Shown: piece after piece, positions 16,276-21,139 of the stretch | Layout of the letters: every line of letters starts with the position of its first letter | Numbering within the stretch: position 1 is the stretch's first letter | The notes under the pieces: generated by a model | Databases searched by the model: none | What the model was told of the DNA's origin: nothing | What the model saw: the letters and a program-made list of their open reading frames with translations, nothing else | Source: an uncultured Verrucomicrobiae bacterium | GTDB lineage: Bacteria; Verrucomicrobiota; Verrucomicrobiia; Limisphaerales; Palsa-1400 | Length of the DNA: 64,000 bases | Assembly: GCA_963764165.1 (NCBI GenBank) | Contig: CAVXRD010000001.1 | Location: forward strand, 1,632,001 to 1,696,000 | Direction: 5' to 3' | Translations under genes and position numbers: made by a program

Positions 16276-17361
16276 TCATGGGGGATTTTTCTTTCCGGCA
16301 GAAGGCTTCAAGTGTTTGAGCTTTTTTATCGCTGCATCAAAATCCTTTTCCACCAAACTTGGCTTCGCGTCTTCGAGCGCGCGGAATTTTGAGAATTCGA
16401 ACTGGGCTTTTTCCATCGCTGCGTCGTGAGAGATTTTTCCCGCATGCGTCAATATATTGCGATCGGACAGGCGCAAAAAATCGTCAAGCTTCGCAGTCCA
16501 GGCCCGCATGGTCATAGGGTTGCGATTCATCGCCTGCAGCTCGGCAAATTCCAGATAGGCGGTCACAATCCGGTTCAGCGCTGTCAATTCCTCCTCCGTC
16601 AAATAGTTTTTGGCAATCGACGTGTCCTCCTTGCGCACGATGCCGCCGGGGCGGGTCGTCTTCAGTCCCATAAAGGGTTTGCTCGCGTCGGCCCGCGCGT
16701 GAATCACTTCAGCCGCTGTGTGCCCATGAGCAGCCCAATGCATTTTATTTTGGACAATCGCAAAAAACGTTTGTGAAACCACCTGGCTCGGATCGTAGTC
16801 GGTGCTCGTGGCATAGATATCCAGAACCTTTCGCCAGAAGACTTTTTCCGACGAACGAATGTCGCGAATGCGCGCCAGCAGTTCCTCGAAATAATCCGCG
16901 TCGCCGCCTTCTTTCAGGCGCATGTCGTCCATCGCGAATCCTTTCACGATGTATTCGCGCAGCCTCTGGGTGGCCCAGATGCGGAACTGCGTGCCACGCG
17001 GAGAACGGACGCGATACCCGACGGCAATAATTGCGTCCAGATTGTAATGTTTCAGGTTCCGTCGAATCGACCGCGCACCCTCCATTCGAACTTGTAAGTA
17101 ATCCTTACAAGTTGCCTGTTCGCCCAGTTCACCTTCGCTGTAAATGGCTTGCAGATGGAGGGTTATGTTCTGCGGCGTAGTCTCGAAAAGCTCTCCCATC
17201 TGAGCTTGGGTAAGCCAAGCTGTGTGGCCGTCCAGGCGGACATGAAGGCGGGTCTGCGCGTCCTCAGTTTGAAAAAGGATAACCTCGCCACCCGGTTTTG
17301 GCTCTCCGCAGGCGGCTACTCGCAAGCCCGCTGAATAGGATTCCGACCCTGACTTGCTCAT
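16276..17361 (-). CDS. rhuM: RhuM family protein (putative DNA-binding)
   Basis: WLTQAQMGELF, HYNLDAIIAVGYRVRSPRGTQFRIWAT, LLARIRDIRSSEK, QNKMHWA, IAKNYL. Confidence 0.92.
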   Translation of the reverse strand: MSKSGSESYSAGLRVAACGEPKPGGEVILFQTEDAQTRLHVRLDGHTAWLTQAQMGELFETTPQNITLHLQAIYSEGELGEQATCKDYLQVRMEGARSIRRNLKHYNLDAIIAVGYRVRSPRGTQFRIWATQRLREYIVKGFAMDDMRLKEGGDADYFEELLARIRDIRSSEKVFWRKVLDIYATSTDYDPSQVVSQTFFAIVQNKMHWAAHGHTAAEVIHARADASKPFMGLKTTRPGGIVRKEDTSIAKNYLTEEELTALNRIVTAYLEFAELQAMNRNPMTMRAWTAKLDDFLRLSDRNILTHAGKISHDAAMEKAQFEFSKFRALEDAKPSLVEKDFDAAIKKLKHLKPSAGKKNPP

Positions 17362-17425
17362 GCGTCGACCAAGAGCATGACCATTCGCACGAAGCGAAGC
17401 CAGCGAAAACACAATCTCGCCGCGC

Positions 17426-17468
17426 ATTATCGTGGACTCGAACTTGTAAGCAATCCTTACAAGTTGCC
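17426..17468 (-). promoter_or_regulatory. Putative rhuM promoter overlapped by a 10-5-10 palindrome
   Basis: Minus strand TTGCTT-16-GATAAT; palindrome aacttgtaag-caatc-cttacaagtt at 17441-17465. Confidence 0.55.
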
Positions 17469-17478
17469 GCCCTGCAAT

Positions 17479-19683
17479 CTAAAACAGCACGGTAAGTTCG
17501 CGGGCGGCGGCCTCGTTCAGGAAATGAATCCACATCAGCCCTTCGTCCGCGCTGTAATTGACAGATTCGACATTCGCCCCGGCCAGGGTCACGGACTTCG
17601 CGGCGCGCGGCGCTCGAATCAAAACTACCGCGGCCGTCCCGCCGACTCCTTCGACCAACGCCGAAATTTTCTCCGCGCTTTGGGTTTGCGGCACCGCGCG
17701 GCAGCCCGCCGCCAGCAGCGAGCGCCCGGCAATATCGGGCGCATCGACATCGAGCAATACAAATCGATGCCCCGGCGATAAGACAACTTCCCTCTGCACT
17801 TTCAATTCGGAGTCAAATAAATTGATGAATCGCCCTTTCAGCACGCGCGGTTCACCGGCGATGGATTCATCAAGGCCCGCCGCGACAATGTAGGGGCCCC
17901 GCTTGAGGTAAAGGCAATTGGTCTCGCTCCAAGCGAAATGCGGAGCGATGGAGCTTGCCAGATCACTCGCGCCGCGGCGGACGGCGTCCACCACAGCTTC
18001 GTCACCGCGCTCTTTGCGCGAAAGCACCGCCGGATTGTGGTGCAGCCAGATCAACTCGCCCTGCCCAACTTTCACCGGGCCTGTTTCATTTTGCGCGACA
18101 CCCAATTGTTCGAAGAGATGCTGGCGCGGCGTCGCGTAATGCATGCCGTTCGTGTTCCACCATTCGCGGACGCGATCGAACGGGTCGCCGTCGTCATCGC
18201 AGAAAACGAGCAAGCCGCCGCGCTTCACCCAATCGGCCAAGCCCGCGTGAACTTCCGGCGTCAACGGTTTCATCCCATGATAGCTCATCAGCAGGCAATG
18301 AACGCCGTCGAGGTAGCCGGGAATTTGCGCGTCCTCGAGTTGGATGGGTTGCACTGGCAATCCGCGTTTGAGGAACGGCAGCGCAAGCCCATACACACCG
18401 CCTAGGCGCGAATCGCTCGGCGAAGGATCGCCGCGCTCGAACATCAGCGAATCTCCGATGATCACGCCTAGTCCGGTTGCGCCGCAATTCCATGAGACGT
18501 TCGTTTGCGCCATGTCGTCGAGGGCATTCCAGATCACTTGCAGCTCCGTCGCGTAGGCGGGGGGCATTTTTTTGCGGTCCTCCCGCGGGCCGTTGCGTGG
18601 GTAGCGCGTATTGAAAATGCGTTCGGGCCACGGCGCGATTTCGTAGCGTGAGACTTCCGGCTGGAAGAGCGATGCCGTCAGCGTGCATTCCCAATTCTGC
18701 TGGTAATCGTTCCAATCATGGTTCCCATTGTCCTCGATGGGATCGTTCAGATACCAAACCGTGCGTCCTGTGGAACGGACAAGATTCTGCATCGCGCCAT
18801 ATTCGAGAAACGCCGTGTCAAAGGTGCGCTCGCGCTCCTGCCCATGGTAGAAATTCGGCGTGCGCGACGTGCCCGTCCAGACCTGCGCAATGTAACCGTC
18901 GCAGCCGTTGAGGCGCGCCAGGCTCGACTCCGGACTGACGATTCCCCAGTCAGCGTAATTGATCAAACTGTGGGTCGGAACGTAGCAGCGGACGTGCGCG
19001 CCCTTCTCTTTGTTGAACGCCAAAATGCTGTCAAACACTTGCTGCAGCGCGCGGCGATACAAATAGTATTTCAGATTGGAGGCGCGCCATTGCGCGTCCA
19101 CCGACGAATGCGGCGCCTGCCACGGCTCGCCATAGTAGCTTTGCCACTCGCGTTTGAAGCCATCGGAATAACCGTTTTGCACCCAGAATTCTGGTTCCTC
19201 CAGATGCACGGCCTCGACGCCGGCGTCCAAAGCCTTGCGCACTCCGGCGCTTAGGTAATTGCCATAGTTTGTGCTCGGGCTCATATAGTATGCGCCGCCG
19301 CCATGGCCGTGCGCACGGCCGCTGCGATCCGTCTGCCGTTCGTCGTTGTGATCCTTCCCGTCGAATCCCCCAAAGAGGAAATTAGTGTAATTGCCCCACG
19401 CCACGCCGGTCATCAAATGAACCCGATAGCCGCGGTCGCGCCACGACTTCACACGCTCTTCAACGTTCGCGTCGAACCCATAGACGATGGCGACATCCGC
19501 GCGCAAATCGCAGTCGGGCTTCCATGCGACATGTGTTTGGAAACACGTCCGCTCCATGCTTTGTTGCGGGTCGGCAAAGGGCAGATTGGTTTGGGCGACC
19601 AGCGGACGAGTCAGCCCGCAAATGCCGAGCAGCGATGCGAAAACGGCAATGGCCTTAACTCGCGAAAACCTCGTCTCATTCAT
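17479..19683 (-). CDS. Secreted hypothetical protein, glycoside-hydrolase-like
   Basis: Signal peptide, aromatic-rich, HLEEPEFW acidic motif, LADWVKRGGLLV segment like GATase-type trimerisation domains; family not recognised. Confidence 0.6.
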   Translation of the reverse strand: MNETRFSRVKAIAVFASLLGICGLTRPLVAQTNLPFADPQQSMERTCFQTHVAWKPDCDLRADVAIVYGFDANVEERVKSWRDRGYRVHLMTGVAWGNYTNFLFGGFDGKDHNDERQTDRSGRAHGHGGGAYYMSPSTNYGNYLSAGVRKALDAGVEAVHLEEPEFWVQNGYSDGFKREWQSYYGEPWQAPHSSVDAQWRASNLKYYLYRRALQQVFDSILAFNKEKGAHVRCYVPTHSLINYADWGIVSPESSLARLNGCDGYIAQVWTGTSRTPNFYHGQERERTFDTAFLEYGAMQNLVRSTGRTVWYLNDPIEDNGNHDWNDYQQNWECTLTASLFQPEVSRYEIAPWPERIFNTRYPRNGPREDRKKMPPAYATELQVIWNALDDMAQTNVSWNCGATGLGVIIGDSLMFERGDPSPSDSRLGGVYGLALPFLKRGLPVQPIQLEDAQIPGYLDGVHCLLMSYHGMKPLTPEVHAGLADWVKRGGLLVFCDDDGDPFDRVREWWNTNGMHYATPRQHLFEQLGVAQNETGPVKVGQGELIWLHHNPAVLSRKERGDEAVVDAVRRGASDLASSIAPHFAWSETNCLYLKRGPYIVAAGLDESIAGEPRVLKGRFINLFDSELKVQREVVLSPGHRFVLLDVDAPDIAGRSLLAAGCRAVPQTQSAEKISALVEGVGGTAAVVLIRAPRAAKSVTLAGANVESVNYSADEGLMWIHFLNEAAARELTVLF

Positions 19684-19693
19684 GAGACTGATT

Positions 19694-21139
19694 TCAATGC
19701 GCCTGTGGCGCGGAGTCAACCTTGTTCATTTGCTTTGGAGGGGTGCGACGCGATTGGAGAAACGCGACCAGATCATCCATGTCGCCGGGGGCTAGGTTGG
19801 CGGCGAACGCAGGCATGTTGTTGCCTCCATTGGAAATTCGGATAATCATTTGGTCGCGCGTCAACCGATCTGCGACGTTGCTTAAGTCCGGCCCGCGACG
19901 CCCGCCGCTGCCGTCGATCCAATGGCAATTGAGGCAGCCTTTGTCATGAAATTTTTGCGCCCCAGCGAACACGGGGCCGCCCGTTGCCCCGACCACGGAT
20001 TCCGGAAGCGGCTTCGCCTCGAAGTTCGGCGACCATGGAGATTTCGCGCCCTCCACCCAAAGGGTCGAAATCATTATGACCACCGCAACGACCATCGCCA
20101 CCGCCCACGGCCGACGGCGAAAACTCCGCTCGCCCTTGTTTGCGATGAACGGCATAACGATCAGTATGAACCCTGCAATCAGCGGCGCAAACACCATGAA
20201 GTAACGCTCCGAGCCATGCGGCAAAAGCGCCAGCACTCCGAAGTACCACAGCAAATACCAATCCGGCCGCGGATCAGCCCCGACGATGCTCGGGTCCGGT
20301 GGCTTGCCAAGTTCGGGCGCGCCAACGATCATCGCCAGCAGCGCCATTCCCAAAATCATCCCCACGCAGAAAACGACATCGCGCCAGGCGGCATCCGGCC
20401 AGAATGGTTTGCCGGTTTTCTCCATCAATTCCTTATATTCCTTGCGATAGGTTTTTGGATTGACGGGCTTGCCTGGAGTCGGCGGCTCAGAAATCCCGTG
20501 ACGCAACACCAGCATCAGATGCAAACCGACAAAAGCAAAAATGCACGCGGGCATGATGAAGACATGCACAACGAAAAATCGTGTCAAGGTCGCCCCACCC
20601 ACTGTATCGCCGCCGAGTGTGAAATGAGCCAGCCACGGGCCAATCACGGGAACGCGGCCGGTTTGTTCCGCCGCGACCACCACCGACCAGATCGCGGTTT
20701 GGTCCCAGCGCAAAAGCTGCCCGGTAAATCCCATCACCAGCGTAAACCCGAGCAGCAGCACGCCCGTCGCCCAGGTCAGCTCGCGCGGAAATTTGTAGGA
20801 GCCGAACAAAAACACCTGCGCCATGTGCAGCCCCACCATCAGCACCATGGCCGAGGCGCCGTAGTAATGGAGGCTTCGCAGGAAATTTCCAAACGGCGCT
20901 TCGTTGGTGATGAATTGGAGCGTTTGATACGCGTCGCCCGCAGAGGGAATATAAGCAAACGCCAACGCTACTCCGCTGACAACCTGAATGACGAAGGCGC
21001 AGAACGTCGCGCTGCCGAAGACATACCACCAGCGCGCATCGTGCGGCACAAGGTGCTTGGCCTGCTCGCCGATCATCGCCCCGAGGCCTGTGCGATCCTC
21101 CAGCCAATCGCGGATTTTTATGAAAACGCGGCGAATCAT
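19694..21139 (-). CDS. qcrB: Cytochrome b of a bc complex fused to a C-terminal cytochrome c
   Basis: RSLHYYGAS...LHMAQVF, TLTRFFVVH, PDWY Qo motif, CLNCH...MPAF. Confidence 0.93.
   Translation of the reverse strand: MIRRVFIKIRDWLEDRTGLGAMIGEQAKHLVPHDARWWYVFGSATFCAFVIQVVSGVALAFAYIPSAGDAYQTLQFITNEAPFGNFLRSLHYYGASAMVLMVGLHMAQVFLFGSYKFPRELTWATGVLLLGFTLVMGFTGQLLRWDQTAIWSVVVAAEQTGRVPVIGPWLAHFTLGGDTVGGATLTRFFVVHVFIMPACIFAFVGLHLMLVLRHGISEPPTPGKPVNPKTYRKEYKELMEKTGKPFWPDAAWRDVVFCVGMILGMALLAMIVGAPELGKPPDPSIVGADPRPDWYLLWYFGVLALLPHGSERYFMVFAPLIAGFILIVMPFIANKGERSFRRRPWAVAMVVAVVIMISTLWVEGAKSPWSPNFEAKPLPESVVGATGGPVFAGAQKFHDKGCLNCHWIDGSGGRRGPDLSNVADRLTRDQMIIRISNGGNNMPAFAANLAPGDMDDLVAFLQSRRTPPKQMNKVDSAPQAH

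Follow-up and report, generated by a model that had tools for sequence, protein, structure and literature searches.

The window analysed here is a stretch of 64,000 nucleotides from an uncultured Verrucomicrobiae bacterium (contig CAVXRD010000001.1, positions 1,632,001 to 1,696,000), and the features under study are listed in Table 1. The protein encoded by the rhuM gene, P0001, matches the Virulence_RhuM profile PF13310 over its full length (374.5 bits, cut-off 33.7), and it is a full-length member of PADLOC PDC-S05, with a PDLC04853 match over residues 25–351 (E 3.7e-141). The start of P0001 was taken from a homologue, and a longer frame opens at 17427. rhuM is a lone gene, located between the 746-aa gene on one side and a convergent esterase gene on the other, and its surroundings (esterase, DUF1552/DUF1592, cytochrome b, MFS and flavoprotein genes) are not a prophage setting; some of its relatives are located in viral contigs. 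rhuM was absent from all 20 fetched loci that carry orthologues of its neighbours, and the two genes flanking it were found together in 0 of 20 fetched loci of relatives.

Table 1 Features of the rhuM locus, in window coordinates
Feature	Position	Strand	Basis or remark
rhuM, 361 aa (P0001)	16276..17361	-	PF13310 / PADLOC PDC-S05
N-terminal domain, residues 26–150, predicted winged helix-turn-helix of MerR/Xis type	16912..17286	-	AlphaFold2
Codons of predicted recognition helix, residues 63–76	17134..17175	-	63, 64, 65, 67 and 68 co-vary with arm bases 5–10
Intragenic 10-5-10 palindrome, TGTAAG class	17089..17113	.	codons 83–92, first wing strand
Second, non-coding copy of the site	17441..17465	.	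13 nt after upstream stop
Weak sigma-70-like hexamer pair overlapping the upstream site	17426..17453	-	8/12 matches; putative
746-aa gene upstream of rhuM	17479-19719	-	no Pfam match; 57–68% identity in relatives

The initial annotation had described two near-identical 31-mers, at 17086–17116 and 17438–17468, and both are present as described: 30 of the 31 positions are identical, and the sole difference falls in the 5-nt spacer (T at 17099, C at 17451). One copy lies inside rhuM, where it encodes residues 83–92 of P0001 and third codon positions pair with third positions. The other, 352 bp away, lies in the gap before rhuM and begins 13 nt past the stop of the 746-aa gene. The 25-bp core with perfect 10-bp arms has 2 matches in the window versus 0.00 in 100 shuffles, and no further copy was found in the 7.0-Mb genome with up to 5 mismatches allowed. 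Other RhuM-class sites in this genome were confined to two other rhuM genes, plus background. A mobile palindrome of the REP-like or RPE-like kind was ruled out, given 2 copies in 7.0 Mb and no dispersal in the host genome. As a separate matter, the genome contains two unrelated families of repeated 5-nt-spacer palindromes that are REP-like, with several copies each (e.g. C2:222484, 421668 and 2338503; C1:474816 and 762083).

Other rhuM sequences were also observed in the genome. A second full rhuM at C2:2207946-2208872 belongs to the TTCC class and has its own helix variant, a C-terminal rhuM fragment lies at C2:2399980-2400135, and a truncated rhuM N-domain of another class, with a perfect CCGG site, lies at C2:1619654-1619887. 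The reading frame of this last one breaks shortly past the palindrome, and it adjoins a transposase-like gene, presumably IS630-like.

Predicted fold of RhuM

AlphaFold2 modelled the N-domain with a mean pLDDT of 84. The best structural match of this model was the DNA-binding domain of pSK1 Par (8csh; rmsd 1.3 Å, 51 aligned) at Z 7.4, a value under 8 that alone indicates only a common arrangement, and the top matches comprised pSK1 Par, ParA N-domains, DdrC, RacA and Xis. A Foldseek search with the N-domain returned no match at E < 0.001. The modelled strand-helix-turn-helix-hairpin topology agrees with that of solved DNA-binding domains, and the RhuM N-domain is predicted to be a winged helix-turn-helix of the MerR/Xis type. 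The homodimer prediction scored 0.75, compared with 0.00 for the best of 3 controls; of 30 solved pairs 20 reached the same mark, and of 23 single chains 1 did. In the homodimer model, contact agreement was at least 92% and pLDDT at least 82, and the listed interface excludes residues 48–75 and 80–107, i.e., the helix and the wing.

The full-length AlphaFold2 model was poor (pLDDT 56), and fold searches from it gave nothing clear for the C-terminal part. In the ESM Atlas, residues 150–345 had only matches at 0.78, and the PHROGs and NCBIfam searches yielded nothing useful. No recognised fold or catalytic family was thus found for the C-terminal effector by fold searches, ESM Atlas, PHROGs or NCBIfam.

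The internal palindrome and its covariation with the helix

The initial annotation had stated that homologous variants of the site-encoded peptide can also be encoded by palindromes, and this was borne out on a family scale, with an internal palindrome in 240 of 242 genes. These genes, which come from several phyla and from viral contigs, were selected on protein similarity and de-duplicated, with 4 partial HMM hits and duplicates left out. At a fixed codon register, 160 genes had 10/10 pairs, 54 had 9 and 11 had 8 (225 in all); 15 further genes, with a shorter wing type, had 10/10 pairs one base over, and 2 had no palindrome. In the first 126 genes, the mean number of pairs was 9.4, versus 6.6 under synonymous recoding with each gene's own codon usage. 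The internal palindrome is characteristic of the family and under selection at the DNA level. Of 40 partial rhuM hits, 24 had a detectable site, a figure to be read with an incomplete class list and with several hits ending at contig ends or before the site. Two repeat-bearing cases were also seen: six overlapping tandem TGCA-class copies inside a rhuM reading frame (L202:851-965), and two site-encoded peptides apparently in tandem in P0033.

Within the 225 genes, 61 of the 76 arm mismatches fell at arm positions 4–5, and on the sense strand A.C mismatches numbered 29 and G.T mismatches 19. Such an absence of G·U bias makes an mRNA hairpin unlikely as the specificity determinant, which had been offered as one option, and the fixed 5-nt spacer argues the same way. 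More broadly, the element might act as RNA (an mRNA hairpin, like a type III antitoxin) or as a single-stranded DNA hairpin read by RhuM, and either copy could indeed fold, as RNA, into a stem of about -11.5 kcal/mol. Besides the mismatch counts, the loop length is fixed at 5 though the loop sequence is free, no Rfam family was matched (one chance-level match lay outside the element), and the predicted domain resembles binders of double-stranded DNA. We consider this reading very improbable.

Mutual information between protein residues and the arm peaked for residues 63 and 67 with arm bases 5–6, for residue 64 with bases 7–8, and for residues 65 and 68 with bases 8–10, and the conserved residues 66, 69 and 70 carried none. 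Across several inner classes, arm bases 5–6 are GT with K63, AT with V63 or I63, and TG with R63 or P63, the exception being V63 with GT in 12 genes. This code was counted on a backbone tree built from the sequence after the wing (173 genes with at least 91 class changes; 52 of the 225 lacked a full backbone and were left out), which gave about 22:0, 19:0 and 26:0 independent pairs. The base pair 7/19 occupies the third position of both its codons and is silent in both, and in the CGG class it is C with R64 or K64 in 27/27 genes and T with other residues in 36/36, i.e., it follows residue 64 in 63/63 genes (10:0 independent pairs, p 0.002). Likewise, GTCAAG versus GTTAAG follows residues 63–64 in 19/19.

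The silent pair bears on a further alternative, in which template switching produced the palindrome incidentally and contacts between helix and wing residues within the protein account for the covariation. Amino acids 85 and 90 are themselves determined by arm bases 5–6, and a share of the covariation could thus arise inside the protein. However, since the silent pair follows residue 64, a reading of the DNA is favoured over a protein-internal origin; the GTCAAG/GTTAAG choice stands against the by-product explanation too, as do non-coding phage copies that retain the same arms and spacer. Its probability appears minimal.

As controls for linkage, the outer arm bases, which lie between the helix codons and the inner arm, were unlinked (4.5 vs 5.1), and so were residues 59, 60 and 71–73. 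Because the outer arms and the likewise intervening residues 71–73 are unlinked, block inheritance alone is insufficient to account for the covariation. The helix codons and the site are 45–70 nt apart, and helix-site blocks also swap: among 513 pairs whose backbones are at least 80% identical, 336 differ in class, and class switches were found between genes 90–97% identical in backbone. The protein P0002, 84% identical to P0001, has a different helix and a different site-encoded peptide. The claim of the initial annotation that the gene holds its own target site, and that site and protein co-vary, seems very likely from the way helix residues 63–68 track arm bases 5–10. Judged from these sequence patterns, cognate binding of RhuM to its own site, taken alone, is highly probable.

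The upstream copy and orphan sites in phages

The upstream copy had been placed over the rhuM promoter. The corresponding -35 and -10 hexamers do exist (17453–17448 and 17431–17426, 16-nt gap), but they score 8/12 and a promoter scan found 0 promoters at its threshold, so that the copy overlaps a putative promoter at most. A role as a general operator did not hold: in the region from -900 to +1500 around 225 rhuM genes, there were 16 extra sites versus 0 in shuffles, and only 2 of the 16 were of the gene's own class. With own-class copies near only 2 of 225 genes, the window's included, an autoregulated repressor with a family-wide promoter operator was rejected. Across 301 genomes of the order, 15 of the 16 exact sites lay in rhuM, and the upstream copy of the window was the only non-genic one. 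Nor did a decayed rhuM duplicate, which had been named as a possible source, find support against the rhuM profile: the best shifted scores of the flanks were -32 and -15, at the background medians of -34 and -16, compared with +40 and +18 for the gene copy. The upstream copy matches the gene copy at 3 flanking bases on each side and nothing beyond, and these six bases recur in 2 of 76 viral orphans and, within the class, in 14 of 42 genes. The upstream copy is local in character and not a family operator. It probably derives from a rhuM gene of its own class, by copying or as a remnant, and would be a spare or left-over self site rather than an operator that the gene requires.

One to three sites of other classes were observed between the end of the previous gene and the rhuM start in five loci (L025, L065, L021, L260 and L609). 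These sites resemble a record of former alleles. In L065 and L609 the previous gene is one that we take to be hsdS-like.

Outside rhuM, the site was found in metagenomes and, more often, in phages. Of 119 exact sites located in metagenome contigs, 32 lay outside rhuM (one of 120 loci was dropped). For the window-class site in viral contigs, with spacers of 0–14 allowed, the spacer was 5 in 118/120, and 113/120 lay outside rhuM, representing 77 contexts, since the viral contigs are redundant and include proviruses. The TGCA class had spacer 5 in 78/106, 63 of these 78 being outside rhuM, with a larger non-5-spacer background (28/106), and a third class had spacer 5 in 119/119 with 109/119 outside rhuM. 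By contrast, two permuted-arm controls gave 4 and 10 matches, with spacer 5 in 0/14. The high share of orphans arises partly because phages rarely carry rhuM. A RhuM N-domain was encoded in 0 of 49 phage records with an orphan site, with a positive control of 4/4 (the records came from 50 of the 77 viral contexts, and 10/49 were at least 90% complete).

Near 143 orphan contexts, 46 further RhuM-class sites were found versus 2 at four other spacers, and eight near-complete phages held 14 extra sites versus 3. Sites of different classes form head-to-tail arrays in viral contigs, with exactly 26 bp as the commonest offset between neighbours. The cultured phages with a match included lambdoid phages, cyanophages B3/B23, REQ2 and Colucci; the lambdoid sites lie in frame in EaA/DUF551 genes, and some array sites lie inside phage ORFs. 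T4, T5 and T7 had only background-level 8/10 matches (2, 1 and 0, respectively), and this near-absence fits their reported sensitivity, though weakly. Two further features of viral contigs were noted. In L325, L319 and L404, a palindrome of different design adjoins RhuM sites; it may belong to another domain family, perhaps a DinD-like one, and arrays may mix families. In the phage genome G103 (L370), a site at position 18040 interrupts a tRNA- or tmRNA-like sequence.

The orphan flanks speak to the possibility that recombination or cleavage at the palindrome swaps helix-plus-site modules, with the free copies, including the upstream one, as scars. The class switches between nearly identical backbones would agree with this, as would the many genes that break soon after the site and the upstream sites that keep 2–3 gene-like flanking bases and follow the stop of the previous gene. 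However, it leaves the residue-by-base covariation with unlinked outer arms unexplained, rhuM-like flanks are kept in only 1/76 viral and 2/32 metagenomic orphans, and symmetric C/C or G/G outer bases occur in 27/76 viral orphans and in 0/42 genes of the window class. As a general account it is improbable, although for the upstream copy it can be compatible with the model favoured below.

A candidate off-switch and its relation to known systems

From sequence and structure prediction, we propose the following model. A RhuM dimer would bind its self-encoded duplex site, with the half-sites about one turn apart, and this binding would keep a putative anti-phage activity of RhuM off. Degradation of the host DNA, or entry of DNA without the site, would lead to release and cell arrest, and phages without rhuM would copy the site as decoys, in arrays. 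That the dimer binds the site, that binding is the off-switch and that phage arrays are decoys seems, as a whole, somewhat probable.

Alternatively, RhuM at the internal site may only repress its own transcription, as a roadblock or by looping with the upstream copy, and the phage sites may bring in RhuM for regulation or serve some other purpose. Autorepression draws on the same covariation and predicted-dimer evidence; in the window the second copy overlaps a weak promoter-like pair, and several rhuM genes are closely preceded by a site. Against it stand the scarcity of own-class sites among the 16 extra ones, and multi-class arrays at a 26-bp pitch, some in phage ORFs, are unlike operators. 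In addition, if RhuM were purely an autorepressor, a decoy would increase the amount of the defence protein. As a phage gains little from titrating the autorepressor of a defence gene and gains from an inactivating or self-marking site, we favour the off-switch and regard autorepression as unlikely. Of the self-referential autoregulation or DNA recognition first envisaged, the covariation of site and protein is supported, but simple autoregulation does not explain the phage arrays; under an off-switch by binding, arrays in phages without rhuM would be explained as likely decoys.

One PDC-S05 gene with a RhuM domain is reported to reduce plating of T7 and T5 by about 1000-fold and of T4 by about 10-fold (bioRxiv 10.1101/2024.09.26.614923). 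It has been suggested that RhuM acts as a toxin alongside R-M and PrrC (PMC3710099), and RhuM is reported to be enriched next to invertible genes (PMC9881135). The accessible PDC-S05/PF13310 literature gives no mechanism, DNA site or palindrome. PDC-S23 shares its N-domain with PDC-S05, and in the papers searched, most subscription journals being outside the search, we found no description of the RhuM palindrome and no mechanism for the RhuM N-domain.

By its logic, BstA-aba is the closest system. According to Owen et al. 2021 (PMC8585504), defence against phages is provided by one protein, BstA, whose N-terminal domain is of HTH type, and aba is a short DNA element that overlaps bstA and suppresses BstA. 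It works at the DNA level, can act in trans when present at high copy, and differs so that each BstA variant has its cognate element. The element is 63 bp long with terminal direct repeats, is located at the start of bstA and safeguards replication of the prophage itself, and a palindrome is not mentioned in the main text (PMC8585504). Membership of rhuM in this system fails on element structure and context: the rhuM site is a 25-bp palindrome at codons 83–92, not a 63-bp direct-repeat element at the gene start, it occupies codons of the reading domain, follows a residue–base code and recurs as arrays in unrelated phages, bstA has no 10-5-10 site, and, unlike BstA, the rhuM of the window is not prophage-encoded. 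An hhalign comparison of RhuM with BstA (KilA-N-like domain) was weak (probability 3.8%, E 0.011, 136 columns).

Intragenic or auxiliary operators such as lac O2, gal OI and the PurR site in purB similarly place the palindrome of a dimeric HTH protein inside coding DNA, but they lie in regulated genes rather than in the codons of the reading domain, and they do not diversify with the helix. Type III toxin–antitoxin systems carry RNA pseudoknot repeats upstream of the toxin, with pseudo-ToxI of phage PhiTE as a phage mimic in repeated form, and would share with rhuM a nucleic-acid antitoxin that is cognate to the toxin and mimicked by phages in repeats. Their repeats act as RNA, whereas the evidence for rhuM points to double-stranded DNA within the gene. 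A type III system was ruled out by the single upstream copy, the lack of a near-cut-off Rfam match and the lack of G·U bias. Coding palindromes of Nematomorpha mitochondria are perfect inverted repeats with both arms protein-coding, but they are numerous and reach 284 bp, and the abstract names no reading protein or covariation (PMC6649704).

The RhuM N-domain is very common, with 22,357 clusters at 50% identity, and it was present in 65/201 and 36/101 genomes of two phylum samples. It is plausible, though short of probable, that RhuM represents a class of one-gene defence or addiction modules in which codons of the reading domain double as a DNA-site antitoxin, a combinatorial helix-to-base code generates variants of it, and phages respond with decoys that need no gene product. 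Each member of the RhuM family would receive a predicted binding site readable from its own gene, and the family would offer a natural residue-to-base code for a winged HTH. Short palindrome arrays of phages, the in-frame sites of the lambdoid EaA/DUF551 genes among them, would gain an explanation that can be tested directly. If RhuM is indeed switched off by binding, the logic of BstA-aba would extend to a far larger family, and the phage arrays would be a DNA-only counter-defence, i.e., an anti-defence that needs no gene product.
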